From NCBI GenBank assembly GCA_903911135.1, contig CAIWCG010000072.1:1-48898 (forward strand): a DNA stretch of 48,898 nucleotides. The letters are read 5' to 3'. The notes beneath the pieces were generated by a model that had not been told where the DNA came from, did no database searches, and saw only the letters and a program-made list of their open reading frames with translations. Source of the stretch: an uncultured Bacteroidota bacterium. GTDB lineage: Bacteria; Bacteroidota; Bacteroidia; AKYH767-A; JABDAW01. Shown here piece by piece: positions 106 through 45,764 of this stretch (the first letter of the stretch is position 1; the number at the start of each line of letters is the position of its first letter). The position numbers and the translations under genes are program-made.

Positions 106-149
106 GAGTTATGAGTTATGAGTTATGAGTTATGAGGAGGAGGAGGAGG
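106..149. repeat. Microsatellite (GAGTTAT)x4 followed by (GAG)x5
   Basis: Read directly: 7-bp units at 106-133, GAG triplets at 134-148. Lies between element copy 1 and the start of the PLD-family gene. Confidence 0.9.
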
Positions 150-3499: not shown

Positions 3500-3709
3500 G
3501 GCCAAAATCAATTTGGATTTTGGCTAAATCAATTTTGATTCGTGTGAAAACCATTTTGATTTGAGTGAAATCAACTTTGATTTAGGCAAAATCAAAGTTG
3601 ATTTGTGTGAAAACCATTTTGATTTGGGCAAAATCAAAGTTGATTCGGGTGAAAGCGCAATTGATTTGAGTGAAAACCATTTTGATTTAGACAAAATCAA
3701 TTTTGATTT
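3500..3709. repeat. TR-1: tandem array, 10 units of 21 bp
   Basis: Units end in TTGATTT/C at 3520, 3541, 3562 ... 3709. Six units contain the 16-bp palindrome AAATCAA-NN-TTGATTT. Confidence 0.9.
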
Positions 3710-3899
3710 GAGCCATATTTAAGCATGATTAGGGGTTTACAAGTCTGCGATTCAGGTTTTACAAGGCTCAACTATACATTTCTTAGCTTATATCAGTATA
3801 ATAGCATCGCCATTAGCGTGCCATCATACTGATATGATAGGTATCCTTTTGATAGTCATTAAAAGTAAATTTGGCTTGATGGATATACGGTTTTGGCAT

Positions 3900-8059: not shown

Positions 8060-8122
8060 CGAGACCTTAACTTCGAGAGCCGAAACCTTTGCTTCGAACG
8101 TCGAAACCTTGGTTTCATTCAT
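8060..8122. repeat. TR-2: mini-array, 3 units of 21 bp (CGARACCTTnnnTTCnA...)
   Basis: Units at 8060-8080, 8081-8101 and 8102-8122, in the spacer between the nosB-like gene and nosL. Confidence 0.65.
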
Positions 8123-9857: not shown

Positions 9858-10567
9858 TCAGAACAGAAAATATTGTAAAGAAATTTGGGAAACTTCAAGT
9901 TTTGAAAGGTGTTAATACACTGTTTCAAAGTGGAGAAGTTATCTCTGTTATTGGGCCAAATGGTTCTGGGAAAACAACATTAATCAAATGTATTTTAGGC
10001 ATGGTTGTTCCTGACAGTGGTAAGATTTTCTTTGATGGCAAGGATATCAGTAATGATTTCTCCTACCGGAAAGACATTGGTTTTATGCCTCAAATTGGCC
10101 ATTATCCTGAAAACATGAAAATTGGACAACTGTTTGCGATGATGAAGGATTTAAGACGGATTTCATCAGAATTAGATGAAGAACTTTTGGAGGAATACGA
10201 CCTTAATAACATGTATCAAAAGGCTATGCGAACCCTCTCTGGAGGAACCACCCAAAAGGTAAGTGCTGCTCTGGCTTTCATGTTTAATCCCAAAGTACTT
10301 ATTCTAGATGAGCCTACAGCAGGACTTGACCCATTAGCAGCAGAAATCCTTAAAGAAAAAATATTAAAAGCAAAAAAACAAGGGAAACTCGTGATTATAA
10401 CCTCACACATCATGAGTGAAGTTGATGAATTGGCAGATAGCATCATGTATCTGTTCGAAGGTAAGATTCTCTTCAATAAAACAATCATGAACATCAAAAC
10501 TGAAACAGGTGAGGACAAACTGGGTAAGGCAATTGCGAAAATAATGAAACAAAACAACCATGTTTAA
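9854..10567 (+). CDS. nosF: NosF, ABC transporter ATP-binding protein
   Basis: Walker A GPNGSGKTT, signature LSGGTTQK and Walker B LILDEP. Overlaps nosD and nosY. Confidence 0.9.
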   Translation: MIRTENIVKKFGKLQVLKGVNTLFQSGEVISVIGPNGSGKTTLIKCILGMVVPDSGKIFFDGKDISNDFSYRKDIGFMPQIGHYPENMKIGQLFAMMKDLRRISSELDEELLEEYDLNNMYQKAMRTLSGGTTQKVSAALAFMFNPKVLILDEPTAGLDPLAAEILKEKILKAKKQGKLVIITSHIMSEVDELADSIMYLFEGKILFNKTIMNIKTETGEDKLGKAIAKIMKQNNHV

Positions 10568-11327
10568 GATAAGCAAATATGTTTTTTACGATATCCTTCG
10601 AAGTAAGGTAATAATCGCGTACACTCTATTTCTTCTTATCATATCATGTGGTCTTTTCATTTTCCAAAACGACATATCAAAAAGCATCATCAGCATCATG
10701 AGCATCATCATGATCATCATTCCACTTGTGAGCATTGTTTTCTCCACTACCTATTTTTACAATGGCTACGAATTCATTGAATTATTATTGGCACAACCTT
10801 TAAGTCGTCGCACCATAATCCTGGGTGAATTTATAGGGATTGCATTTTCATTGGTAACTGCTTACTTGATCGGGGTTGGCATTCCAATACTTATTTATGC
10901 TGCAAACGCCACTGGAACAGTCATCATCATTTCAGGAATTGCACTTACCTTAACCTTCATTTCTCTTGCTGTTTTAGCCTCCGTGGCCACCAGAGACAAG
11001 GCTAAAGGGATCGGTATTTCCTTGATGCTATGGTTTTATTTTTCAATAATTTATGACGCAATCATCTTGGGCATCCTGTTCGCCTTCAGCGACTATCCTT
11101 TAGACAAAGCCGTTATCGTATTGGCATCATTGAACCCGATAGATTTGGGCAGAATAATCATTCTGCTAAAGCTCGACATTTCTGCATTGATGGGATTTAC
11201 GGGCGCAGTTTATAAAGAATTCTTTGGAAGCAACTTCGGACTCATTTATTCCATTTCCATCATGATTGTCTGGATTATTCTTCCGCTTTCCATATCCATC
11301 AAAATATTTAAAAAGAAGAATCTATAA
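10560..11327 (+). CDS. nosY: NosY, ABC-2 type permease
   Basis: 255 aa with about 6 TM helices. Overlaps nosF by 8 nt. Last gene of the nos cluster. Confidence 0.85.
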   Translation: MFKISKYVFYDILRSKVIIAYTLFLLIISCGLFIFQNDISKSIISIMSIIMIIIPLVSIVFSTTYFYNGYEFIELLLAQPLSRRTIILGEFIGIAFSLVTAYLIGVGIPILIYAANATGTVIIISGIALTLTFISLAVLASVATRDKAKGIGISLMLWFYFSIIYDAIILGILFAFSDYPLDKAVIVLASLNPIDLGRIIILLKLDISALMGFTGAVYKEFFGSNFGLIYSISIMIVWIILPLSISIKIFKKKNL

Positions 11328-11379
11328 TTATTGAAGATTCCTATTTTCGATGCTCAAAAACCGATTTTTAACTTAAATA

Positions 11380-11556
11380 GACATGGATTATTCACAATTA
11401 GCCATGGCAGATTCACAGTCTGCCATGGCAGATTCACAGTTAGCCATGGCAGATTCACAGTTAGCCATGGTAGATTCACAGTCTGCCATGGTAGATTCAC
11501 AGTCTGCCATGGCAGATTCACAGTCTGCCATGGCAGATTCACGGTTAGCCATGGCT
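11380..11556. repeat. TR-3: tandem array, about 8.4 units of 21 bp (GCCATGGCAGATTCACAGTYW)
   Basis: Each unit carries the 8-bp palindrome GCCATGGC. Four of six frames are stop-free, which produces the overlapping ORFs 11331-11682. Confidence 0.95.
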
Positions 11557-11602
11557 AAAAAATGGGATTTCAACCAAAATTGCAAATGTTTGGACGAGAA
11601 AC

Positions 11603-11731
11603 CTGCCATCGGGCATAGCCCTGACATGCCCAAGGTTATCCTTTTGTGCGTTGGCATTTTTGGGGGGGTATGGAAAAGATAACTGATGGCTGGCAGGTAG
11701 CACCAAATAACGCGAGGTGTCTGTCGGCTTC
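11603..11731 (+). repeat. Possible diverged relative of the AGCGG element (copy 4?)
   Basis: Patchy collinear similarity to 28189-28309: TGCCATCG..GCATAGCCC, CTTT(T)GTG.CG...TTTGGGG, and CGAG-N9-GGCTTC against CGAG-N11-GGCTCC. The stem GTTATC(C)TTTT/AAAAGATAAC replaces CCGCTGC/GCAGCGG around the same G-rich loop. Confidence 0.35.
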
Positions 11732-11798
11732 AAAAAAGAATTATTGATTATCCATTTTTAATTGAGCGGAGTTGAGTTAGATGTATCCCATTTATTTA

Positions 11799-11806
11799 TA
11801 CATTTG
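11799..11806 (+). promoter_or_regulatory. -7 promoter box (TACATTTG) for the POT transporter
   Basis: Exact TAnnTTTG followed by CCGC, 27 nt upstream of the ATG at 11833. Confidence 0.5.
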
Positions 11807-11832
11807 CCGCATTAATAATCAATAATGGATTT

Positions 11833-13371
11833 ATGGAAAAATCAATGACAATAGCAGAAATTCAGGACTTCAAAGGGAAGTATCCAAAACAGCTTTGGTA
11901 TCTTTTCTTTTCCGAGATGTGGGAGCGTTTCAGCTTTTATGGAATGCGGGGCATGCTTACCTTTTTCATGGTGAATCAGCTGATGATGGATGAGAAGGTG
12001 GCTAATCTTCAATACGGCTCTACCCAAGCGTTCGTGTATGCATTCACCTTCATCGGTGGCCTGTTTGCCGATAAGATTTTAGGGTTCAGAAAGTCCTTGT
12101 TTTGGGGCGGTTTATTGATGATCACTGGCAGTTTGATATTGTGCATCAATCCGAAGGACTTCTTCTTTTTGGGAATCAGCTTCAACATCATCGGAACGGG
12201 TTTCTTCAAACCGAACATTTCGACGATGGTGGGTGCTTTATACCACGGCAATGACAGTCGCAGGGACGCTGGATTCTCCTTATTTTATTCAGGAATAAAC
12301 ATCGGAGCGTTGTTGGGCGGATATGCCTGCATTGCGATAGGAAAAGGCAACCTTCTGGCTGATTTGGTACCAGAACATTTGCGATGGAATGTGGCCTTTG
12401 GTCTTGTTGCAATCGTGATGACGATAAGTCTGATAACCTTTACTTATACTCGCCACACCTTGGGGCCAATAGGCTTGTCCCCATTGAAACCAATCGAGGA
12501 CAAGGATGGTGACGGCAAACTGGATTCAGGAAAGAAATGGTATGAATATGCTGTATATATAGGCGGTTTGATGTCGGTGCCATTGATAATGAAAATGGTG
12601 GCGAACACGGTTTATACGGATTGGTTCATGATGATAATCGGCCCTTTCAGTTTGATTTATCTGCTATATGAAATGACAAAACACTCGAAAGAAGAAGTAA
12701 AGAAACTCATTGCAGCCCTTCTTTTCATCATTTTCTCCGTCATGTTTTGGGCCATTTACGAACAGGCCGGAGGTTCCTTGAGTCTGTTTGCCGCCAACAA
12801 TTTAAATGGCAGCTTCCTCGGAACGTTCACCTTGGATCCAAACGGTGTAAACAATGCTGCGAACTCCTTGTTCGTCATCATCTTCGCTCCAATCGTAGGG
12901 CTGTTGTGGGTAGGCATGGCTACAAGAAAAATTGAGCCGAATACGGTCATTAAGTTCGGGTTCGGATTCCTATTTTTAGGTTTCGCGTTCTATACGTTTT
13001 ATGCCACAAGATTATTTGCCAACGCTCAAGGTATCGCCACATTGGATGTCTTCACACTAGCCTATTTCATTGTCACTTTGGGCGAGTTGTGTTTGTCGCC
13101 AATAGGCTTGTCAATCATGACGAAGCTATCACCAGCAAGATTGCAGGGAGTGATGATGGGAATGTGGTTTTTGGCAAGTGCTTACGGTCAATATGCAGCA
13201 GGACTTTTCGGAGCAAGCATAGTTTCGGAGGTAAAGAATGCCACAACTATGGACAAACTGATTTCTTATACCGACGGCTACAAGCAATTTGCCCTCTATG
13301 CAGTCATTAGTGGCGTGATTTTGATAGCCATTTCGCCACTGGTAAAGAAGCTGATGCAGGACGTAAAATAA
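11833..13371 (+). CDS. POT/PTR2-family di/tripeptide:proton symporter
   Basis: 512 aa. PTR2 signatures FSEMWERFSFYGMRG and FGLFYSGINIGA-like. About 14 TM helices. Confidence 0.9.
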   Translation: MEKSMTIAEIQDFKGKYPKQLWYLFFSEMWERFSFYGMRGMLTFFMVNQLMMDEKVANLQYGSTQAFVYAFTFIGGLFADKILGFRKSLFWGGLLMITGSLILCINPKDFFFLGISFNIIGTGFFKPNISTMVGALYHGNDSRRDAGFSLFYSGINIGALLGGYACIAIGKGNLLADLVPEHLRWNVAFGLVAIVMTISLITFTYTRHTLGPIGLSPLKPIEDKDGDGKLDSGKKWYEYAVYIGGLMSVPLIMKMVANTVYTDWFMMIIGPFSLIYLLYEMTKHSKEEVKKLIAALLFIIFSVMFWAIYEQAGGSLSLFAANNLNGSFLGTFTLDPNGVNNAANSLFVIIFAPIVGLLWVGMATRKIEPNTVIKFGFGFLFLGFAFYTFYATRLFANAQGIATLDVFTLAYFIVTLGELCLSPIGLSIMTKLSPARLQGVMMGMWFLASAYGQYAAGLFGASIVSEVKNATTMDKLISYTDGYKQFALYAVISGVILIAISPLVKKLMQDVK

Positions 13372-14076: not shown

Positions 14077-14198
14077 GCCCCCTACCCTATTCAACTCGAT
14101 TTCCTTACCTTCAATATTTAATAATATCAGTCCAAACATGTTTGGCAAATAGGTTAATTGCCAAAATAAACATCAAAACTCGTATTGACAACAAACAT

Positions 14199-14607
14199 AT
14201 TATTGGATGTGTTCAATACGACCATATTGGGTCAATACATATTAATGGATGTGTTCAATACGACCGTATTGGGTCTATCTATATTTATGAATCCAGTCAA
14301 TACGACCGTTTCCAGTCAATCACTAAGTAGTAATCCATTCAAAACGACCGTTTCCAGTCAATCACTAAGTAGTAATCCATTCAAAACGACCGTTTCAAGT
14401 CAATCAATAAGTAGTAATCCATTCAAAACGACCGTTTCCAGTCAATCATTAGGTAGTAATCCTTTCAATACGACCGTTTCCAGTCAATCACTAGGTAGCA
14501 ATCAATTCAAAACGTCCGTTTCCAGTCAATCACTAAGTAGTAATCCATTCAAAACGACCGATTCCAGTCAATCACTAGGTAGCAATCAATTCAAAACGTC
14601 CGTTTAT
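14199..14607. repeat. TR-4: tandem array, about 9.7 units of 42 bp
   Basis: Unit boundaries at 14199, 14241, 14283, 14325 ... 14577. Core AAACG-AC-CGTTT in each unit. The first 2-3 units are a diverged variant. Confidence 0.95.
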
Positions 14608-14693: not shown

Positions 14694-16190
14694 TTAAAAT
14701 TGGAAATAAATGAACGGTTTTACATCGGCACTCATAGTTTGAATGACGAGATAAATTACCAATGTAAGGATAATTGCCTTGATGAAGGGGTGCGATTTAG
14801 TGAAGATTCTCTGCCCCATTTCCTTGAATCTCTTGGGAATAAAATGGATGATGAACCCAAAAACGATGAGGGCGAAAACATCCTTGTATGCATCGATGAT
14901 CTTTAGGAATTCTCCACCTGATTTCATGAAAATAGCTGCCTGACTTATCAATTGCCCTGCAATGGTGAAATCTTTGGCCCGGAAGAAAATCCAACAGAAA
15001 CACACGAAATGAAAAGTGATCAGAACAGAAACAATTCTAAGCCACTTGCGTGGTCTTAACTTTACAATAGACTGGAAGGCCTTTTCGACAGCAAGAGCCG
15101 TACCGTGGAGACCACCCCAAATGATGAACTTCAAAGATGCTCCGTGCCATAATCCTCCCAAGAGCATGGTAAGGAAAAGGTTGATGTAGGTGCGAATTTT
15201 GCCTCTGCGGTTGCCACCCATCGAAATATATAGATAATCTTTCAACCACGATGATAAACTGATGTGCCAACGCCGCCAGAATTCGGTGATGGAGCCTGAA
15301 ACATAAGGCGCATTGAAGTTGACTGGCAAGTGAAATCCTAGGAGAAGGGCAATGCCGATGGCCATATCGGAATAACCAGAAAAATCACAGTAAATCTGCA
15401 AGGCATAACCATACATGGCGCCGAAATTTTCGAATGGTGAATAGAGCATTGGGTTGTCGAAGACTCGGTCAACGAAATTGCCAGAAATATAATCGGAAAT
15501 GACTGCCTTTTTGATCAATCCGGCCATGATGAGAAACAAGGCCTTGCCCAAATCTTCATTGCTCAAGAAAGGCTTTTTATGAATCTGCGGGAGGAAATCA
15601 GTTGCCCGAACGATAGGTCCTGCAACGAGTTGCGGAAAAAATGAAACGAAGAAACCATAGTCGATAATGCTGTTCAATGGTTTGATGTTTCCGCGATAAA
15701 CATCGATGGTATAGCTCAAAGATTGAAAAGTGAAAAAGGAAACTCCCACTGGCAAAAAGATGTCATAATGTTTGAAGTCGAGTGAACCGGAACTGGAGAA
15801 AATGCTTGTATATAAATCATGAAAGATATCCAAAAAGAAATTGGTATATTTGAAATAGGCCAGCATGCCAAGGTTCAATACCAGGCTGAAAACAAGGTAG
15901 AACGACTTGCGTGCCTTAGATAAACTGTCATTTATCAAATGCGATAGAAAGTAATCGACTATGGTGCTTCCGATTAGAATCAAAAAGTAAATTCCACTCG
16001 ATTTGTAGTAAAAGAAATAGGAAAAGAGAATGACATAAATGATTCGTCCACGTTGGCGATTCCTTAGCAATAGATATCCTGCATAAAAGAACAGGAATAG
16101 GATGAGAAAGAAGCCCGTATTAAAGAGAATGGGGCTCTTCTTATCGTAAACGAACAGGTTGAGAAACTTATCTATGTCTATCTGATTCAT
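14694..16190 (-). CDS. MBOAT-family O-acyltransferase (AlgI/DltB/PatA-like)
   Basis: 498 aa, polytopic. Conserved region FWRRWHISLSSWLKDYLYISMGGNRRG ... LWHGASLKFIIWGGLHG. Confidence 0.9.
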   Translation of the reverse strand: MNQIDIDKFLNLFVYDKKSPILFNTGFFLILFLFFYAGYLLLRNRQRGRIIYVILFSYFFYYKSSGIYFLILIGSTIVDYFLSHLINDSLSKARKSFYLVFSLVLNLGMLAYFKYTNFFLDIFHDLYTSIFSSSGSLDFKHYDIFLPVGVSFFTFQSLSYTIDVYRGNIKPLNSIIDYGFFVSFFPQLVAGPIVRATDFLPQIHKKPFLSNEDLGKALFLIMAGLIKKAVISDYISGNFVDRVFDNPMLYSPFENFGAMYGYALQIYCDFSGYSDMAIGIALLLGFHLPVNFNAPYVSGSITEFWRRWHISLSSWLKDYLYISMGGNRRGKIRTYINLFLTMLLGGLWHGASLKFIIWGGLHGTALAVEKAFQSIVKLRPRKWLRIVSVLITFHFVCFCWIFFRAKDFTIAGQLISQAAIFMKSGGEFLKIIDAYKDVFALIVFGFIIHFIPKRFKEMGQRIFTKSHPFIKAIILTLVIYLVIQTMSADVKPFIYFQF

Positions 16191-17505: not shown

Positions 17506-18922
17506 ATCCGTTAATCAGTTCTTTATATAGCATGTTTGCCACCTTTGCTGCGCCTCTATAATTGAGGTGTGTATAATCCTTGTTTGCCAATGCAGTATCT
17601 GCTGTAGCCCATGCTACCATTGAGTTGTGTCCTCCCATCGCTTCATAAAGATTCCAAAAGGATACATGGGCAGAATCAGCTAATCGCTTCTGTGTTTCAA
17701 CTAAAACAGGAACACCTATATCCGTTTCCATTTCGCCATTCACTTTGGTGCTTTTATCATTGACACTTACCATCAGGATGCTCGATTTCGGGAAGCATTG
17801 TGTGAATTGTTTCATCACCGTTTTCATTCCTCGCTCATACCATGAAAAATCCTTCTGATTCTTTGCAATTACATTCAAACCATAATGAACTATTATCAAA
17901 TCATATTCGAAAGTGGCGGCAAAATCCCTCATTAATTTATAGGGAACTACACTGAATGCTAGCCCAGAATTGCCTCTGAAAGAATAATTGTCGAGAAGCA
18001 CTCCATCAGCACTTTCAAAACTCAAACCATATACATTTATCTTCTCGCCGGCAAAGAAATTCACCTCGCATTTGCCTGCCGGAAGCTCCGTATTTAAAGC
18101 TGTTCGGTTCAAATCTTCAGCTCCATCCAGCGGTTTGTAAAGATTATCCTCGATACCCCAAGTATAATTTATGAAACTTCGAGGATTTCCTTTGCCATAA
18201 TACAAATAGGCCTCATCGAATTGCTTGGCATTGAAACAAGTTGGACAAGCATTATATTTTACCCAACTATGATTGAAGGAATGATGGGAAGAATCGGCGG
18301 CATTTATCCGGGAATCGATGAGAGGATTAAAAACATAGCCGGCAATGCCAATCATCCGGTCAGGTTTATTATTTTCTGTAAAGGAACTTGCAGCCCAATC
18401 GGTGGAAAATGTCTGAATTATCGTTTGCCGGAAACCTGCTACGGGAGAAGTTATCGGTACAAAACCGACTCCTTTTCCTCCAAATCGCGATTGCAGAAGT
18501 TCTCTCAATTCTCTTGTCAACAAATCGCCTTCTATCATCGAATCGCCGAAATAAGCTATCCGTGTTTTGTGTTTTCCTTTCTTTGTTTGCTGCAAGGATT
18601 TAAAAAATACGGTCATTCCTCCAGCCGAATCGGGGGCAAATTCAATTGTTCCTTGAGTAGATGGTAGTTTTTTCTTGAGTTTTGCCTTTGCCAATGAATC
18701 GACCATGACTGATTTCATGGAACCTGCGAATGAAACCGTGGAATCTACCCCATTTTTACCATCTTTTTGAGTATTTTTGGTGATATTTGAGAAAAGATTG
18801 ACCTTTTTTAAAGTAAATCCGCCAATAGTTACATCAAAATCAAGAAAAGCCCAAACATTCAGAATAACTATTGTAGCCGCAAGTATCCAAAGTGCTTGAG
18901 TTTGGCGATTATCTTTATTCAT
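17477..18922 (-). CDS. SGNH/GDSL-like protein, N-terminally membrane anchored
   Basis: 481 aa with an N-terminal TM. IAYFGDSMIEGD (block I) and DYTHLNYRGA (block V-like). Overlaps the downstream gene by 29 nt. Confidence 0.7.
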   Translation of the reverse strand: MNKDNRQTQALWILAATIVILNVWAFLDFDVTIGGFTLKKVNLFSNITKNTQKDGKNGVDSTVSFAGSMKSVMVDSLAKAKLKKKLPSTQGTIEFAPDSAGGMTVFFKSLQQTKKGKHKTRIAYFGDSMIEGDLLTRELRELLQSRFGGKGVGFVPITSPVAGFRQTIIQTFSTDWAASSFTENNKPDRMIGIAGYVFNPLIDSRINAADSSHHSFNHSWVKYNACPTCFNAKQFDEAYLYYGKGNPRSFINYTWGIEDNLYKPLDGAEDLNRTALNTELPAGKCEVNFFAGEKINVYGLSFESADGVLLDNYSFRGNSGLAFSVVPYKLMRDFAATFEYDLIIVHYGLNVIAKNQKDFSWYERGMKTVMKQFTQCFPKSSILMVSVNDKSTKVNGEMETDIGVPVLVETQKRLADSAHVSFWNLYEAMGGHNSMVAWATADTALANKDYTHLNYRGAAKVANMLYKELINGYDDYEKKHK

Positions 18923-19284
18923 TGCGGCGCAAATTAAGTATTATTTAAGGTAATCGTTTTGTTTTTATCAATAAATTGTAAAAGATGATACAAGACCCAT
19001 TGCAAGCAGAATCATTAACAAATCTGATGCCCAAAATTCTTCCGATTCTTATCGATGAGATCCAGCAGATGGGCAATATGATGAAGCTTTTCAGCCATTA
19101 CCTGCAATTGATTTCATAAAAGATATGACTAAAAATCATGGTTTTATTAATTATCATCCTCAAGATGCAGCATACCGATAAAAAGTCATCGATGATAAAT
19201 GATTAGCAATCATAAATTATTGATGACCATATAATAACAGTATAACAGATGGCGGTGAATGGGTAAGACATGCAGCTCTTTCTG

Positions 19285-19830
19285 GAAAAGCGATTCCTTT
19301 TTCCGAAAAAGCGATTCCTTTTCTCTGTTTTGCGATTGCTTTTTCTAGATAAGCTGCAGGTAAAACGGTTTTAGCTGCACCTTTTCCAACAAAAGCGATT
19401 GCTTTTCTTGAATTTGCGATTGCTTTTTCTCCATAACCTGCACCTAAAATCGATTTACCTACATGAAATCGAAAAAAAGGAATCGCTTTTTCGGAAAAAG
19501 GAATCGCTTTTTGATAATAAGGTGTAAGCTATGCTTGAAAAGGTTCAGGTTTTAATTGAAATGATGTAGGTGATGAAGAATAAGATGCATCTTTTGTTAG
19601 AAAAGGTTAAGCTAATGATAAAAAAGGTGTAACATCTGGCATTTTAGGTTAAGCTTTTGGCTAAAGAGATGCAGGTGATGACGAATCTGATGCAGGTTTT
19701 GATTGAAAAGTTTAAGCTATTTATAAAAAAAGTGCACCTCCTGGCTTTTTAGCTTATGCTTTTGATAAAACAGATGCAGGTAACGACGAATCAGCTTCAG
19801 GTTTTGATTGAAAATCTTAATCATCATGCA
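19285..19830. repeat. TR-5: degenerate tandem array, 26 units of 21 bp with a 105-bp (5x21) higher-order repeat
   Basis: The register holds from 19285 to 19830 (units start GAAAAG/AAAAAG/TTTTAG/AATMWG). 19600-19704 against 19705-19809 is about 81 percent identical by hand count. No ORF of 60 aa or more in 18923-19956. Confidence 0.85.
19286..19511. repeat. Perfect 37-bp inverted repeat pair inside TR-5 (arms 19286-19322 and 19475-19511)
   Basis: AAAAGCGATTCCTTTTTCCGAAAAAGCGATTCCTTTT and its exact reverse complement, separated by 152 bp. Confidence 0.9.
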
Positions 19831-19924
19831 ATAATTGCATCGCATTTCTGCGAGCTATCATGGCATAATGATTATCATTGCCAGCATTATCGGCAGTTTT
19901 TAAATTAAAGATGTGGTAATTTGC

Positions 19925-19932
19925 TATATTTG
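19925..19932 (+). promoter_or_regulatory. -7 promoter box (TATATTTG) for ettA
   Basis: Exact TAnnTTTG followed by CAGCCC, 25 nt upstream of the ATG at 19957. Confidence 0.5.
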
Positions 19933-19956
19933 CAGCCCTAAAAATAAATATTAAAC

Positions 19957-21633
19957 ATGGCAGACGACAAAAAAGTGATTTTTTCGATGGTTAACGTCAG
20001 CAAGACGTTTCCGCCGCAAAAACAGGTATTAAAGGACATCTATCTTTCGTTTTATTATGGCGCAAAGATTGGCATCATCGGATTGAACGGATCGGGTAAG
20101 TCCACCTTGATGAAGATTATCGCCGGAGTGGAGAAATCCTTCAACGGAGAGGTGGTTTATTCGCCCGGATACAAGGTGGGTTATCTGGAGCAGGAACCGA
20201 AATTGGACGACACGAAAACGGTGAAGGAAATAGTGCAGGAGGGCGTGCAGGAAGTGGTGGACATCTTGAAGGAATATGAAGAGATAAACAACAAGTTTGC
20301 CGAGCCGATGAGCGATGAGGCCATGGAAAAACTGCTGGACCGACAGGCAAAGGTGTCGGACATGATAGAACATCACAATGCCTGGGAACTGGACAACAAA
20401 TTGGAACGTGCCATGGATGCATTGCGCTGCCCGGAAGGCGATACACCTATCGTAAACCTATCGGGAGGCGAACGAAGACGAGTTGCCCTGTGTAGATTGT
20501 TGCTTCAGGAACCGGAGATATTGCTTTTGGATGAGCCCACCAACCATTTGGATGCGGAGTCGATAGATTGGCTGGAGCAGCACTTGAATCAGTATAAGGG
20601 AACCGTTATTGCCATCACCCACGATAGGTATTTCCTTGATAATGTGGCCGGCTGGATATTGGAATTGGACCGAGGTGAAGGCATTCCTTGGAAAGGGAAC
20701 TACTCCTCTTGGCTGGAGCAAAAGGCCAAACGTTTGGAGATGGAATCGAAGGGCGAAAGCAAACGCCAAAAGACCTTGGAGCGAGAGCTGGAATGGGTAA
20801 GGATGTCGCCAAAGGGCCGTCACGCCAAGTCGAAAGCACGTCTGCAGGCCTACGACAAGATGATGAACGAGGATGTGAAGACGAAGGAAGAGAAGTTGGA
20901 AATATTCATACCGAATGGTCCACGTTTGGGTAACGAAGTCATCGAGGCCATCAATGTTTCAAAGAGTTTTGGCGACAAATTGCTTTATGAGAATCTGAAT
21001 TTCAAGCTGCCACCTGCAGGTATCGTAGGTATCATTGGACCAAATGGAGCTGGAAAGACCACCTTGTTCAGGATGATCATCGGTTCAGAAACACCGGATA
21101 CGGGTGATATCAAGATTGGCACCACAGTTCGGGTGGGATATGTAGATCAAAGCCATTCGGAAATAGATCCTGACAAAAGTGTTTGGGAAGTCATTTCGGG
21201 TGGTCATGAGGTGATAGAAATGGGTGGCAAATCCTTGAATTCTCGTGCTTATGTTGCCCGTTTCAATTTCAGTGGGGCGGAACAAGGCAAGAAATGCGGT
21301 GTTTTGTCGGGTGGTGAACGAAACCGCCTTCATCTTGCAATGACCTTGAAGACAGAAGCGAATGTGTTGCTTCTGGATGAGCCGTCCAACGATATCGATG
21401 TCAATACATTACGAGCTTTGGAAGAGGCGCTGGAAGACTTTGCCGGTTGTGCCGTCATCATTTCCCACGACCGTTGGTTCCTTGATAGGGTTTGTACCCA
21501 CATTCTTGCTTTCGAAGGTGACTCACAGGTATATTACTTCGAAGGAGGATATTCTGAATATGAAGAGAACAAGAAGAAACGAATGGGCGACACAGGACCT
21601 CATAGAATCAGGTATCGCAAGCTTGTAATTTAA
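19957..21633 (+). CDS. ettA: Energy-dependent translational throttle protein EttA (ABC-F ATPase)
   Basis: 558 aa, collinear with EttA throughout (e.g. ITHDRYFLDNVAGWILELDRGEGIPWKGNYSSWLEQK). Two ABC cassettes. Confidence 0.9.
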   Translation: MADDKKVIFSMVNVSKTFPPQKQVLKDIYLSFYYGAKIGIIGLNGSGKSTLMKIIAGVEKSFNGEVVYSPGYKVGYLEQEPKLDDTKTVKEIVQEGVQEVVDILKEYEEINNKFAEPMSDEAMEKLLDRQAKVSDMIEHHNAWELDNKLERAMDALRCPEGDTPIVNLSGGERRRVALCRLLLQEPEILLLDEPTNHLDAESIDWLEQHLNQYKGTVIAITHDRYFLDNVAGWILELDRGEGIPWKGNYSSWLEQKAKRLEMESKGESKRQKTLERELEWVRMSPKGRHAKSKARLQAYDKMMNEDVKTKEEKLEIFIPNGPRLGNEVIEAINVSKSFGDKLLYENLNFKLPPAGIVGIIGPNGAGKTTLFRMIIGSETPDTGDIKIGTTVRVGYVDQSHSEIDPDKSVWEVISGGHEVIEMGGKSLNSRAYVARFNFSGAEQGKKCGVLSGGERNRLHLAMTLKTEANVLLLDEPSNDIDVNTLRALEEALEDFAGCAVIISHDRWFLDRVCTHILAFEGDSQVYYFEGGYSEYEENKKKRMGDTGPHRIRYRKLVI

Positions 21634-21791: not shown

Positions 21792-21955
21792 CAAACGTTA
21801 CCGTTTGAGTTCGAAACGTTACCGTTTGAGATCGAAACGTTACCGTTTGAGGTCGAAACGTTACCGTTTGAGGTTGAAACGTTACCGTTTGAGGTCGAAA
21901 CGTTACCGTTTGAGGTTGAAACGTTACCGTTTGAGGTCGCAACGGTGACGTTTGG
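21792..21955. repeat. TR-6: tandem array, about 7.8 units of 21 bp (GAAACGTTACCGTTTGAGGTY)
   Basis: Units at 21792, 21813 ... 21918. Core AAACG-TTAC-CGTTT inverted repeat in each. Confidence 0.95.
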
Positions 21956-23527: not shown

Positions 23528-25024
23528 ATGAAGACTCATATTATTTCCTCTGAAAAGATAGATTTATCATTGATTAAGGATTTGCTTGATGCACCTTATG
23601 AATTGCAACTTTCTGAAGATTCTATAAACAGGATTGTTAAATGCCGGGATTATCTGGATAAAAGGATTGCTTCCGGCAATGAATCCATTTATGGAGTAAA
23701 TACAGGCTTTGGCTCGCTATACAACAAGAGCATTTCTTTGGAAGATCTCGATACCTTGCAAGATAATCTGGTGATGTCTCATGCTTGTGGAACAGGTGAT
23801 GAAGTGCCAAAGGATATTGTAAAACTGATGTTGTTCCTCAAGATACAAGGTTTGTCTTATGGTAATTCCGGCATTCAATTGGCGGTGGTAGAGCGCTTGA
23901 TATATTTCTTTAATAACGATATTCTCCCTGTTGTTTACCAACAAGGTTCACTTGGTGCATCAGGCGATTTGGCTCCGTTGGCGCATCTTTCATTGCCATT
24001 GATAGGTATGGGAGAAGTTTATCATAAGGGAGTAAAAAAACAAACGAATGAGGTACTTAAAGTCTTGAATTTAAATCCAATAAAGCTTAAGGCAAAAGAT
24101 GGATTGGCACTCTTGAACGGCACCCAGTTCATGGCTGCTTATGGCTGTTTTTGCTTGATTAATTCCAACAGGTTGTTCGATTTTTCTACCCTTATTGCTG
24201 CCATGTCCATCGATGCTTTCGATGGAAGAATAGAACCTTTTCATGCGAATATTCAAAACATCAGGCCGCATACGGGCCAAAAGATTACTGCAGAATATAT
24301 CTGTGAAATCTTAGAGGATAGTGAAATCATCAAACAGCAAAAAGCCCATGTTCAGGACCCCTACTCTTTCCGTTGCATTCCACAAGTTCATGGTGCCTCG
24401 ATTGATGCTATAGAATATGTGGCATCGGTGTTTCTTACCGAAATAAACTCTGTTACAGATAACCCCACTATCTTTCCTGATGACGATTTGGTTATCTCTG
24501 CTGGCAATTTCCATGGTCAACCTTTGGCTTTGGCTTTGGATTTTCTTGCTATTGCACTATCAGAATTAGGTAATATATCTGAAAGAAGAACCTACCAGCT
24601 TATTTCTGGTCAGCGTGGATTACCGCCTTTCTTGGTTGCTAATCCCGGATTGAACAGTGGATTGATGATTCCTCAATACACAGCCGCTTCCATCGTTAGC
24701 CAAAACAAGCAACTTTGCAGTCCAGCATCTGTTGATAGCATTGTATCTTCGAATGGTCAAGAAGACCATGTGAGCATGGGTGCCAATGCCGCCACCAAGG
24801 CTTTCAAAGTTGTGGAGAACTTGGAAAAGATTCTTGCCATCGAACTATTAACAGCTGCCCAAGCATTGGAATTCAGGAGGCCACTAAGGTCATCCAGCAT
24901 AATAGAATCCATGATTGAAAACTATCGAAAAACGGTTCCATTCATCAGTCAGGATAGGGTTTTATATGATGATATCAGGAAAAGCATTGAATTTATTAAA
25001 AATATTAATGGCATCATAGAGTAA
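23528..25024 (+). CDS. hutH: Histidine ammonia-lyase
   Basis: 498 aa. MIO-forming GASGDLAPLAHL motif and conserved NGTQ, QEDHVSMG. Confidence 0.95.
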   Translation: MKTHIISSEKIDLSLIKDLLDAPYELQLSEDSINRIVKCRDYLDKRIASGNESIYGVNTGFGSLYNKSISLEDLDTLQDNLVMSHACGTGDEVPKDIVKLMLFLKIQGLSYGNSGIQLAVVERLIYFFNNDILPVVYQQGSLGASGDLAPLAHLSLPLIGMGEVYHKGVKKQTNEVLKVLNLNPIKLKAKDGLALLNGTQFMAAYGCFCLINSNRLFDFSTLIAAMSIDAFDGRIEPFHANIQNIRPHTGQKITAEYICEILEDSEIIKQQKAHVQDPYSFRCIPQVHGASIDAIEYVASVFLTEINSVTDNPTIFPDDDLVISAGNFHGQPLALALDFLAIALSELGNISERRTYQLISGQRGLPPFLVANPGLNSGLMIPQYTAASIVSQNKQLCSPASVDSIVSSNGQEDHVSMGANAATKAFKVVENLEKILAIELLTAAQALEFRRPLRSSSIIESMIENYRKTVPFISQDRVLYDDIRKSIEFIKNINGIIE

Positions 25025-25042
25025 ATATAAAATCATTTATTT

Positions 25043-25050
25043 TATATTTG
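25043..25050 (+). promoter_or_regulatory. -7 promoter box (TATATTTG) for tRNA-Met
   Basis: Exact TAnnTTTG followed by CACCCC, 42 nt upstream of the tRNA 5' end. Confidence 0.45.
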
Positions 25051-25091
25051 CACCCCGATTCGCAAAAAGCGGTCGCAGTTCTTAATAGCAT

Positions 25092-25165
25092 GGCGAGGTA
25101 GCTCAGATGGTTAGAGCGCAGGATTCATAACCCTGAGGTCAGGGGTTCAACTCCCCTCCTCGCTA
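25092..25165 (+). tRNA. tRNA with CAU anticodon (elongator Met; the lysidine Ile2 alternative is not excluded)
   Basis: Cloverleaf folded by hand: acceptor GGCGAGG/CCTCGCT (G1-U72), D arm GCTC..GAGC, anticodon loop TTCATAA, T arm AGGGG-TTCAACT-CCCCT. CCA is not encoded. Confidence 0.9.
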
Positions 25166-25173
25166 CAAAAGAC

Positions 25174-25211
25174 AGCCCTTTGAAAATAAAAATTCAAAGG
25201 GCTTTTCATTT
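25174..25211 (+). terminator. Rho-independent terminator after the tRNA
   Basis: 11-bp stem AGCCCTTTGAA / TTCAAAGGGCT with an 8-nt loop, followed by TTTCATTT. Confidence 0.75.
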
Positions 25212-25283
25212 ATATACCACTTCGACAGTAAATAATTAGCTATTAAAATATACTGGAAGTATTATATTCTCCTCTTGAAATAC

Positions 25284-25291
25284 TACTTTTG
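25284..25291 (+). promoter_or_regulatory. -7 promoter box (TACTTTTG) for the Nramp-USP gene
   Basis: Exact TAnnTTTG. It overlaps the ORF-track TTG start at 25289, which argues for the ATG at 25346. Confidence 0.45.
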
Positions 25292-27319: not shown

Positions 27320-27550
27320 CTGTCGTCTGTCATAAGTTACCTGTCGTCTGTAATAAGTTGCCTGTTGTCTGTCAAAATTGTCTTGTCGTCTGTCATAAGT
27401 TACCTGTCGTCTGTAATAAGTTGCCTGTCGTTTGTCATAAATTGCCTGTTGTCTGTCATAAGTTGCTTGTTGTCTGTCATAAATTGCCTGTCGTCTGTAA
27501 TAAGTTACCTGTCGTTTGGCATAAGTTGCCTGTCGTTTGGCATAAGTTAC
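27320..27550. repeat. TR-7: tandem array, 11 units of 21 bp (CTGTCGTCTGTCATAAGTTRC)
   Basis: Unit starts at 27320, 27341 ... 27530. Internal direct half-repeat CTGTC-GT-CTGTC. Confidence 0.95.
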
Positions 27551-27672: not shown

Positions 27673-27903
27673 AGCTTATCTAATTGTTGTAATATGCTAT
27701 CTCGGGGTTGTAAAATGCTATCTCTTGGTCGTGAAATGCTATCTCGTGGTCATGAAATGCTACCTCGTGGTCGTAAAATGCTATCTCGGGATCGTAATAT
27801 GCTACCTCGTGGTCGTAAAATGCTACCTCGGGATCGTAATATGCTATCTCATGATCGTAAAATGCTATCTCGGGATCGTAAAATGCTACCTCGTTATCAT
27901 AAA
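27673..27903. repeat. TR-8: tandem array, 11 units of 21 bp (ATGCTAYCTCGKGRTCGTAAW)
   Basis: Unit starts at 27673, 27694 ... 27883. Sequence is unrelated to TR-7, which lies 120 bp upstream. Confidence 0.95.
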
Positions 27904-27950
27904 ATGAGAGTCATTTGAAAGATTTTAAGCTAAGAAGGGTGGAAAAGGGG

Positions 27951-28090
27951 AAATGTGGGTGGGTGTTTTGGGGTCTGGATTGCAAATCCAGACCAGCGGG
28001 AAAATGTGGATGGGTGTTTTGGGGTCTGGATTACAAATCCAGACCAGCAGATTGGGTGTTTTGGGGTCGGGATTGCAAATCCCAACCAGC
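27951..28090. repeat. TR-9: three copies of a 37-nt hairpin repeat (GGGTGTTTTGGGGTCTGGATTGCAAATCCAGACCAGC)
   Basis: Copies at 27961-27997, 28012-28048 and 28054-28090 (spacings 51 and 42 bp). 9-10 bp stem GGTCTGGAT/ATCCAGACC. Copy 3 has a paired T-A to G-C change. Confidence 0.9.
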
Positions 28091-28309
28091 GTGATAGTGA
28101 ACAACCTTACAGGACGGCGAGAAAAAAGCCGACCTGTCAGGATGTTCGCCGCAGCCAGGTATTGTATTGGAAGTTGTTTCGAGGCAACTTGCCATCGAAG
28201 CATAGCCCCGATAGTAGCGGCAGCCCGCTGCTTTGTGTCGGGTTTGGGGATGCAGCGGCTACAGCGGATAGCGGGACTGGCCATGATACGAGTGGAGGAT
28301 ATAGGCTCC
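28091..28309 (+). repeat. AGCGG element, copy 2 (only internal, probably full-length copy)
   Basis: 28211-28309 matches 1-99, and the core matches 48869-48898 (minus strand). Upstream part contains hairpins ACAGGACGGC/GCCGACCTGT (9/10 bp) and AAGTTG/CAACTT. CCGCTGC (28225-28231) can pair with GCAGCGG (28251-28257). Confidence 0.7.
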
Positions 28310-33801: not shown

Positions 33802-33824
33802 GTTTGATAATCATCCAAAACCTT

Positions 33825-34010
33825 AAAAAGGTCACCATGATCATAGTTTGGTATTTTGTAGCTTAAAAAGGTCAATCCATGATCATAGTTTGGGATTTTG
33901 TAGCCTAAAAAGGTCATTCCATGATCATCGATTGGGATTATTCAGCCTAAAAAGGCCAATCCATGATCATCGATTGATAATTTCCTTAAAAAGGACAATT
34001 GCTTATAAGG
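33825..34010. repeat. TR-10: tandem array, about 4.5 units of about 42 bp (AAAAAGGTCAWTCCATGATCAT...)
   Basis: Unit starts at 33825, 33865, 33907, 33949 and 33988 (lengths 40, 42, 42, 39). Palindrome ATGATCAT in each unit. Confidence 0.85.
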
Positions 34011-40015: not shown

Positions 40016-40245
40016 CTGATGGATGAGAACGGGGTAAAAAGTAATGCCCGAATACCTCCTCAGGATGAGATCATACCAAAAAGTACTGCCTGTATTCTTC
40101 CGAAGGATGAGAGCATACCAAAAAGTGGGGCCTGTATTCTTCCGAAGGATGAGAGACCACCAAAAAGTACTTACAAGGGCTTTTCCAAGAAAAGAGGAAT
40201 CCCAAAAACTGGTACCCGAGACCTTGTGGGCTTTTGGAAAAAATG
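40016..40245. repeat. TR-11: tandem array, about 5.5 units of 42 bp (CCGAAGGATGAGAGCATACCAAAAAGT...)
   Basis: Unit starts at 40016, 40058, 40100, 40142, 40184 and 40226, decaying outward. Lies between the GerE-like gene and the 320-aa orphan. Confidence 0.85.
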
Positions 40246-45177: not shown

Positions 45178-45387
45178 AAAACAAGCATTTTATCCATCCG
45201 TTCGATGATGCTTTTATGAGTTCGCCACTGCTGTGGACGAAATTATAAAAGCATCATGAATAAAGAAAACCGTCATTCATTATATATAGTCATCATTATT
45301 GATGATTTAAGTTTTTTTATGATTGCTAAATATCCCCTTTTGGCAAGTTTCAGCTTGAGATTGACCAAAACCACCTTAAAAGCACAG

Positions 45388-45597
45388 AAAAAAGAAGTCT
45401 TGTTTGGAAAAAAAGAAGTCTTGACGGGCAAAAAAGAAGTCTTGACGGACAAAAAAGAAGTCTTGACGGGCAAAAAAGAAGTCTTGATGAGCAAAAAAGA
45501 AGTCTTGACGAGCAAAAAAGAAGTCTTGACGAGCAAAAAAGAAGTCTTGACGGACAAAAAAGAAGTCTTGACGGGCAAAAAAGAAATCCTTTCGGGG
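45388..45597. repeat. TR-12: tandem array, 10 units of 21 bp (AAAAAAGAAGTCTTGACGRRC)
   Basis: Unit starts at 45388, 45409 ... 45577. One A6 tract per unit. Four of six frames are stop-free (ORFs 45256-45708 plus, and three on minus). Confidence 0.95.
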
Positions 45598-45666
45598 CAT
45601 TATCAAGCATCATTATCAATAATCAATACCTATATATATGGTATCATCATCAAAAATTTCAATATC

Positions 45667-45689
45667 ATAATAGCTTCTTTTCAAGCCAT
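45667..45689 (+). repeat. 23-nt motif ATAATAGCTTCTTTTCAAGCCAT flanking TR-12 (identical to 14628-14650)
   Basis: Exact 23-mer match in the same orientation relative to the array. Confidence 0.85.
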
Positions 45690-45764
45690 GATGCTATTGA
45701 AAGAATAAGGAATCTGGTTATAATTATTTAACTTCGCCCTCAATTAAAAATAAATGCGCTTAGG

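Follow-up and report, generated by a model that had tools for sequence, protein, structure and literature searches.

How does a repeat array come to hold exactly one period through units of diverse sequence, and what does it do between two divergent operons? We addressed this question on a DNA stretch of 48,898 nucleotides from an uncultured Bacteroidota bacterium (contig CAIWCG010000072.1; the whole stretch is hereafter called the window). The spacer at 18923-19956 separates a minus-strand SGNH-SGNH-MBOAT operon, which encodes proteins of 481, 445 and 498 amino acids (aa) and whose first gene, SGNH-481, adjoins the spacer, from the plus-strand gene ettA. It contains an array of 26 units, each exactly 21 bp in length (19285-19830; 546 bp, no strand), referred to here as the focal array. 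We favour the explanation, to which we assign a probability of roughly 0.6, that this array is old and decayed, has a higher-order and partly inverted structure, and belongs to a class of slippage-born intergenic satellites that is specific to the lineage and quantised in steps of 21 bp; any effect on the flanking promoters would then be architectural. According to this explanation, a 21-bp unit would have been amplified, would have diverged and would then have been re-amplified as 84-bp and 105-bp blocks, and one two-unit piece would have been duplicated in inverted orientation. Throughout the class, the period would be fixed at 21 bp or a multiple of it and the unit sequence would be free, with a quantum that equals three heptamers and two helical turns, such that each unit would face the same side of the helix.

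Register and unit structure of the focal array

Autocorrelation of 19285-19830 over lags 1-259 clearly revealed the register: the twelve highest values (0.41-0.59, against a mean of 0.27) fall at all the multiples of 21 from 21 to 252. A weight matrix built from the 26 units scored above 8 bits at 24 of the 26 in-register positions on the plus strand and at no other offset, and Tandem Repeats Finder (TRF) also called a 21-bp repeat at 19279-19327. Both the autocorrelation and the weight matrix thus bear out the strict 21-bp register through 26 units that an initial annotation of this DNA had described. On average, the units are alike at 9.8 of 21 positions (~47%).

Both halves of the array are organised into higher-order blocks. 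The left half is an 84-bp (4-unit) repeat, which was absent from the initial annotation and which TRF placed at 19306-19490 (no strand; 2.2 copies, 75% matches). In the right half, TRF called a 105-bp (5-unit) repeat at 19563-19814 (2.4 copies, 80% matches, 0% indels), which in register spans ~19537 to 19830 with an ungapped in-register identity of 72-78%. The 105-bp block previously proposed for this half was therefore recovered, whereas its count of exactly two copies was not, the repeat being present in about 2.4-2.8 copies at 72-80% identity. The self-alignment that had been suggested as a check, performed by TRF and autocorrelation, displays the 21-bp and 105-bp periodicities. The left half also contains the exact inverted repeat of two opposite-orientation units that had been reported there. 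In reverse complement, its right arm (19475-19511, minus strand; 37 nt, units 10-11, type A inverted) equals its left arm (19286-19322, plus strand; 37 nt, units 1-2, type A: GAAAAGCGATTCCTTTTTCCG) base for base, and the match is not extendable by one base at either end. A segment of 152 bp (19323-19474) lies between the exact arms, which sit within 89-nt arms that are 73% complementary.

The column consensus of the 26 units, AAAAAGCTGCAGCTTTTGATA, combines a 16-bp exact palindrome, AAAAGCTGCAGCTTTT, with ~5 variable, near-random bases. Columns 2, 3 and 5 are A or T in every unit and column 13 is always C or G; 22 of the 26 units have G in column 6, and columns 18-21 are near random. Several core types are found, namely GCGATTCC and its inverse, a CTGCAG-like type and a TTAAGC-like type. 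The palindromic consensus explains why 13 of the 26 units also score as a unit on the minus strand, at one fixed offset, and why the single strands fold strongly: the left half reached -66.9 kcal/mol as single-stranded DNA (z = -10.3) and the right half gave z = -4.35 as RNA. Palindromic units are not general among the arrays described below, since 3 of 19 array consensus units are significant in this respect; some variant units hold 12-16-bp palindromes.

To the left of the focal array, the spacer (18947-19284, no strand) is probably a more decayed array. It contains three matrix matches above 8 bits, two of which are in register (19075 and 19264; ~0.2 matches expected), and weak autocorrelation at lags 105, 84 and 21, all within the top five on this side (18923-19284). 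Older decayed units upstream had been proposed before from AATCTGATGC, which is indeed present at 19021 and 19684. Its reading as a relic did not hold up, as the offset of 663 (31 x 21 + 12) is out of register and about what chance would give; the two in-register matrix matches and the lags back the idea better.

The spacer (33.9% GC, against 40.7% for the window) has a single TAnnTTTG box, the canonical Bacteroidetes -7 element. This box, TATATTTG at 19925-19932 on the plus strand, is 25 nt before the ettA ATG at 19957 and 95 bp past the array end, in agreement with the distance of about 95 bp given in the initial annotation. On the opposite side, the SGNH operon has a -7-like box, AAATAATACTTAATTTGC (18929-18946, minus strand), within a few bases of the SGNH start codon. 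This block alone is conserved in the orthologous spacers of the related loci L084, L083 and L087, the rest being unalignable. To judge by the positions of the two boxes, neither mRNA would include the array, which would lie upstream of both regions of transcription start. The anatomy described earlier, a gene-free array upstream of both promoters, is thereby confirmed. The accompanying idea of a special element that occupies and governs a single control region common to both operons found no support, the array being one of at least 12 in the window.

Three further features lie near the array or the flanking starts. A 15-bp exact palindrome, ATGCAATAATTGCAT (19826-19840, no strand), at the right array edge is a possible operator. 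A Fur-box-like sequence, ATAATGATTATCATT, is present at 19865-19879, ~45 bp upstream of the ettA -7 box, its resemblance being to the E. coli consensus. Phased T-tracts in the 5' coding end of SGNH-481 (18710-18857) are predicted to form the most or third most curved segment of the window, and TRF called a 10-bp period at 18764-18791 within the same end.

Arrays of the same period in other spacers and genomes

TRF identified at least 12 intergenic arrays in the window, all with periods of 21 or 42 bp but each with its own, unrelated unit; the focal array is the most scrambled of them and, on our reading, the oldest. Of the eleven sister arrays, four have a period of 42 bp (14195-14605, 27947-28090, 33824-33970 and 40036-40169; that at 27947-28090 resembles repetitive extragenic palindromic (REP) elements), and the others, at 3503-3710, 8060-8110, 11390-11555, 21793-21944, 27320-27548, 27689-27906 and 45388-45585, have a period of 21 or 42 bp. 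They contain 0-1% indels, and 63 bp was seen among them as a higher order. When all intergenic DNA except the focal spacer was pooled, autocorrelation peaked only at 21, 42, 63, 84, 105 and 126 (0.33-0.42, against a background of ~0.265), and coding DNA displayed only its usual 3-nt ripple. Within the window, arrays account for 5.3% of all DNA and 28% of intergenic DNA, at a density of about one per 4 kb. They occupy nine of the ten spacers of at least 300 bp and occur in tandem, divergent and convergent (3'-3') spacers alike, three of the array-bearing spacers being convergent and without a promoter. Young arrays are 84-94% homogeneous. No motif shared among the arrays was found, although three cross-genome unit pairs reach 15 of 21 matches, and in the 49-kb window outside its own spacer the focal unit matrix gave only background-level matches, mostly in coding sequence.

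Comparison of near-identical strains revealed the gain and loss of whole units. L001 (97.7% identity to the window) has an additional 21 bp at window position 21832, L091 (99.9% identity) has an additional 42 bp in the array at 33824, and L084 and L085 differ by two 21-bp units with 0 mismatches over 13.8 kb. These changes fit replication slippage or unequal exchange. In contrast, the focal array has the same length in L001, L002 and L091: its spacer is identical in L091 and L002 over the covered part and differs in L001 by 25 substitutions without indels. A stable copy number is expected here because the units have diverged. The young homogeneous arrays behave as variable-number tandem repeats (VNTRs), and the focal array is an old one that is no longer slipping.

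More distant relatives keep the period and mostly change the sequence. A first contig scan with the SGNH protein found no relative, and a scan with EttA yielded no GTDB species above 84% identity. L084 and L085, from lake metagenomes (63% identity in the SGNH protein), hold six arrays of period 21, 42 or 126, one of which is just upstream of the true SGNH start. In L083 and L087 (SGNH 53-58%), the SGNH gene is immediately preceded by a 21-bp array, with 10.4 and 7.8 copies. In L089 (HisS 74%), a decayed 21-bp register extends over ~600 bp (43-640) upstream of ettA and is unrelated in sequence to the focal array; the motif CTGTCA recurs there at multiples of 21 nt, mostly 63. L090 has such a 21-bp register upstream of hisS and L013 one downstream of ettA. 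No arrays were detected in L086 (SGNH 46%, 21 kb) or L088 (HisS 77%, 13 kb), the latter having none upstream of ettA. Relatives thus either lack arrays or have them, in the same spacer or in others, with the same period and for the most part another sequence. The comparison of related strains that had been proposed for this locus gave a split result, as the spacer is colinear in L001, L002 and L091, whereas in the orthologous spacers of L084, L083 and L087 only the -7 box aligns. In a 690-kb control of 80 other Bacteroidia and Ignavibacteria loci, mostly from metagenome-assembled genomes (MAGs), complex 21-mers were rare and heptamer-built periods of 7, 14 and 21 were commonest; the heptamer arrays of the control Bacteroidia already show a 21-nt higher order. 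A blastn search against plasmids and phages gave no match. Taken together, these sequence comparisons suggest that 21/42-bp arrays are limited to a few related uncultured Bacteroidota.

Some arrays share sequence across loci or affect gene annotation. Three copies of a REP-like hairpin, GGTCTGGATTnCAAATCCAGACC, lie at 27970-28090 of the window; its core, GGATTnCAAATCC, also makes up a 21-bp array at a non-homologous L084 locus (14981-15014) and is absent from the other 86 loci. The hairpin may represent a repeat family that is mobile or has arisen convergently. The 42-bp arrays at window 14195-14605 and L084 2735-3107, which are not homologous loci, have a common core, ACGACCGTTT, matching at 15 of 21 positions in one half-unit, and both adjoin POT-family transporter genes. 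Simple heptamer repeats (GAGTTAT, GAATTAT, GGTAAAG and others), at window 106-136, L084 4897-5005 and L013 1840-3933, are present in genomes that also hold 21-bp arrays. A 150-aa open reading frame (ORF) of KKEVLTG heptads on an array (45256-45708, plus strand) passes the Pfam threshold for a grass antifreeze beta-roll family, and the L084 SGNH protein (10001-11872) is annotated 148 aa too long (623 aa), the upstream array being open in frame. In practical terms, gene callers put spurious or extended ORFs on arrays, as in these two cases and in a 44-aa ORF of the focal spacer discussed below.

The gene content of the window is otherwise that of an ordinary Bacteroidota chromosome, with a nos cluster, POT transporters, hisS, hutH, Nramp, type IX secretion system (T9SS) cargo and dnaN. 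A Flavo-1 RNA (RF01705; 52.6 bits, threshold 42) is located at 28200-28282 (plus strand) inside a 1.27-kb spacer that holds three arrays, and a tRNA-Met gene is located at 25092-25166. The hutH gene and the following spacer (23528-25288) have one substitution relative to strain L001, against 2-3% in the flanking genes, and are probably a recent recombination tract.

Origin of the period and competing explanations

Why should the period be 21 bp? Within the units of 21 arrays, 7-nt power was 0.115-0.133 against a null of 0.077 (P<=0.002), and power at 10.5 nt and 3 nt was equal to the null. The unit profile of the focal array has a 7-nt harmonic at P ~0.03, and lags 7 and 14 are without an autocorrelation peak in this region. 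Among the multiples of 7, only 21 and 42 occur as primary periods, and 63, 84, 105 and 126 occur as higher-order blocks. All of these lengths are whole 10.5-bp turns, which would imply a double constraint of heptamer quantum and helical phase. Heptamers are the most abundant intergenic repeat in prokaryotes and their function is unknown (PMC6344855). The 7-nt length was attributed to polymerase slippage by Mrazek et al. 2007, according to the summary of that work in PMC4679880.

In a dinucleotide wedge model, 9-10 of the 20 segments of 147 bp with the highest predicted curvature in the window are arrays, and this curvature arises from the period alone. Selection for curvature found no support, as the units do not exceed shuffled ones in bending and a 10.5-nt A/T harmonic is absent. 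A 7-codon coding cause of the number 21 was not supported either, given that there is no 3-nt harmonic across the arrays and that several of them are closed in all frames.

For the focal array, the slippage-born satellite that we favour would act on the divergent promoters, if at all, as architecture, i.e. as a 546-bp AT-rich, phased and bent spacer that is possibly coated by an abundant DNA-binding protein, and not through a gene product or RNA. It may also be without any selected function. A bolder account, which we put forward tentatively and consider distinctly less probable, is that a 21-bp molecular ruler common to a clade of uncultured Bacteroidota, several members of which come from lake metagenomes, filled nearly every long spacer; the ruler could lie in the replisome, in DNA repair or in a DNA-wrapping protein of high abundance. 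The arrays would make up ~5% of the DNA seen, and the focal array would be ancient and would have been kept in phase and partly in sequence by a protein that reads it.

Several observations weigh against the satellite explanation. The palindromic consensus is a hint of sequence constraint that pure junk would not predict. The 13 substitutions in the array relative to L001 avoid conserved columns and fall on low-information ones (P=0.024), and the spacer diverges from L001 by 2.4% against ~9% at ettA synonymous sites, the latter being our own estimate from 36 changes, all of them synonymous. Unit A and the unit of the L084 array in the orthologous spacer agree at 15 of 21 positions, a value above the maximum of 14 reached in 3000 trials of a shuffle null, and the unit occurs in both orientations in the focal spacer and in the orthologous L084 spacer. 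These constraint statistics are modest and come from tests picked after the data were seen. The units, moreover, are not more bent than shuffled ones (median percentile 0.28-0.42) and have no 10.5-nt A/T phasing, and no mechanism accounts for the use of 3x7 and 6x7 only, without 14, 28 or 35, the helical-turn argument being inferential. Finally, the copy numbers of the young arrays come from short-read assemblies, which may collapse or otherwise mis-size arrays, and ~130 kb of this clade was covered in total.

The main rival, an operator- or iteron-like array, draws on the same signs of constraint, and we regard it as possible though doubtful. A dimeric protein would bind half-sites AAAAG and CTTTT one helical turn apart, and 26 phased sites would nucleate a cooperative filament that sets the expression of the SGNH/MBOAT genes and/or ettA. 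Such binding would suit an exact 16-bp palindrome with a 5-bp linker, the conservation of columns 2, 3, 5, 6 and 13, the fixed-offset minus-strand scores, the placement of the L001 substitutions, the low divergence of the spacer, and the persistence of a similar unit in both orientations in an L084 spacer that is otherwise unalignable except for the -7 box. However, the unit cores (GCGATTCC, CTGCAG and TTAAGC) differ strongly, and one protein would read only their A/T flanks. Unrelated arrays of the same period also occupy other spacers, including the three convergent ones that lack promoters; the arrays at the orthologous place in L083 and L087 and upstream of ettA in L089 are unrelated in sequence, L088 has none upstream of ettA, and no candidate regulator is encoded nearby.

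Four other explanations are much less probable than this one. The 37-nt repeats might be invertase sites that flip the 152-bp segment and phase-vary the adjoining operon, which is of a polysaccharide O-acetylation type, in the way in which Bacteroidales capsule promoters invert. Exact arms around a short segment beside the SGNH-SGNH-MBOAT operon, far better matched than the remainder of the array (73% in the 89-nt arms), are what such an inverton would have, but the reading is very unlikely. The segment (19323-19474) contains no TAnnTTTG on either strand, and its distance is ~365 bp to the start of SGNH and ~480 bp to that of ettA. It has one orientation in all three covering assemblies (window, L001 and L091), beside which a minority orientation may occur; the L001 arms differ at 2 of 37 positions and are not being homogenised, no recombinase was found in the window, and the arms are simply two array units. 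We attach a similarly small weight to the idea that the array is the relic of a heptad-repeat (coiled-coil-like) protein gene, with 21 nt as 7 codons, or still encodes a small protein. The plus frame in unit phase does give heptads (EKVKLMI KKVHLLA ...), and 6 of its 182 codons are stops where we would estimate ~13 from base composition, the column profile has a 3-nt harmonic (P ~0.02-0.045, uncorrected), and a 104-codon stretch on the minus strand is free of stops. Yet all six frames of the array contain stops (6-21 per frame), its conceptual translations gave no Pfam match, and the longest ORF overlapping 18923-19956 has 50 aa, which agrees with the earlier statement that none of 60 aa or more lies between the SGNH operon and ettA. 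The palindromic unit makes both strands mimic heptads, the arrays as a whole give no 3-nt signal, and several of them are without an open frame. The 44-codon ORF at 18985-19119, which is called in the public annotation, has 3 non-synonymous and 0 synonymous changes relative to L001 and no homologue was found for it; it is probably not a gene.

A structured non-coding RNA, in which the array is transcribed and folds into long stems, is still less probable. The folding z-scores given above speak for it, but the fold follows trivially from palindromic units, and the two substitutions in the inverted repeat of L001 (2 of 37 positions) are not compensatory. With Rfam 15 at E<=1, the only matches in the spacer were to miRNA hairpins of plants and animals, all of them below threshold (17-37 bits, where 88-160 would be required), and at gathering score only the tRNA and Flavo-1 were found in the whole window, neither in the spacer. 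No TAnnTTTG motif upstream of or inside the array is placed to transcribe it, and no terminator-like site was found. The cruciform or RNA stem envisaged in the initial annotation is therefore upheld as to its strong single-strand fold and not as to its formation, given that no promoter motif is suitably placed for transcription of the array and that cruciform extrusion from duplex DNA is unlikely with 152 bp between the exact arms. The search for a small protein or non-coding RNA gene that would explain the region, which the same annotation had called for, thus ended without an ORF of 60 aa or more, an Rfam family or a Pfam match. The least probable explanation of all is an assembly artefact, in which the period would echo the k-mer size of 21 from which de Bruijn assemblers commonly start. 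The divergence of the focal units is too great for collapse or looping, the periods 42, 84 and 105 also occur, contigs whose record names (NODE_, k141_ and Logan) point to different assemblers agree on a colinear spacer without indels, and the 690 kb of control loci, mostly MAGs with similar contig names, are without such arrays. On the cross-assembler colinearity and the control loci, we rejected this artefact.

Relation to known repeat systems

Such a class was not found described in the literature searched on bacterial 21-bp intergenic repeats, where only heptamer literature was found. Complex units locked to 3x7 or 6x7 bp offer a handle on the open question of heptamer abundance (PMC6344855). 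The arrays are dense, variable in copy number and decayed to various degrees, and are therefore useful for asking which gene content co-varies with the 21-bp quantum. Whether they are bent or protein-coated, and whether they are relevant to promoter insulation or nucleoid structure, are further questions.

The closest counterparts are the heptanucleotide long simple sequence repeats (LSSRs; Mrazek et al. 2007), the cyanobacterial short tandemly repeated repetitive (STRR) sequences and the TAACTGA repeats of Beggiatoaceae, Cyanobacteria and Bacteroidetes, which are likewise intergenic, scattered by lineage and of unknown function (PMC6344855, PMC4679880). Polymerase slippage has been proposed as the origin of the heptamers; a 7-nt sub-period is present in the units of the focal class, whose genomes also contain heptamer arrays. 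Those repeats are 7-mers, whereas the present ones are complex 21/42-mers that use only three or six times this length, have locus-specific sequence and occur about once per 4 kb, and the focal region itself shows no tandem 7-nt unit, with no lag-7 or lag-14 peak. Mycobacterial interspersed repetitive units (MIRUs), intergenic tandem units of 40-100 bp, and VNTRs are similar in that units of tens of bp stand in tandem between genes and strains differ by whole units. The focal array has the head-to-tail unit of 10-100 bp that defines a minisatellite or VNTR, as revealed by TRF and autocorrelation; whole-unit change was seen in sister arrays (+21 in L001, +42 in L091 and 2x21 in L084/L085) and not in the focal array. 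MIRUs have few sequence families and variable unit length, whereas the present arrays combine a quantised length with a free sequence.

Plasmid iterons, which are direct repeats of 17-22 bp that recur about every two helical turns and in some cases include inverted copies at a promoter, and plasmid partition arrays share with the focal array a period of ~21-22 bp, direct and inverted copies and a position upstream of promoters. The focal array differs from them in its chromosomal housekeeping context, its 26 diverged units and the many unrelated arrays genome-wide. Its neighbours (SGNH/MBOAT, ettA, hisS, hutH and nos) include no initiator (rep) or partition (par) gene. REP elements and bacterial interspersed mosaic elements (BIMEs) are, like some units here, extragenic palindromes that are sometimes clustered, and the sister array at 27947-28090 is itself REP-like and shares its hairpin core with L084. 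Unlike REP elements, the focal unit is not dispersed within the 49 kb searched, the arrays run head-to-tail, and no transposase of the REP-associated tyrosine (RAYT) type was seen. Clustered regularly interspaced short palindromic repeats (CRISPR) differ in that the 21-bp units abut without spacers, and no cas domains were found in the window. By analogy, the arrays can finally be compared with the higher-order repeats of eukaryotic satellites. The host here is a bacterium, and the unit is tied to two helical turns or three heptamers and not to the nucleosome, without a centromere role; as in those satellites, diverged monomers appear to have been re-amplified as multi-monomer blocks (84 and 105 bp), with the period kept while the sequence turns over.

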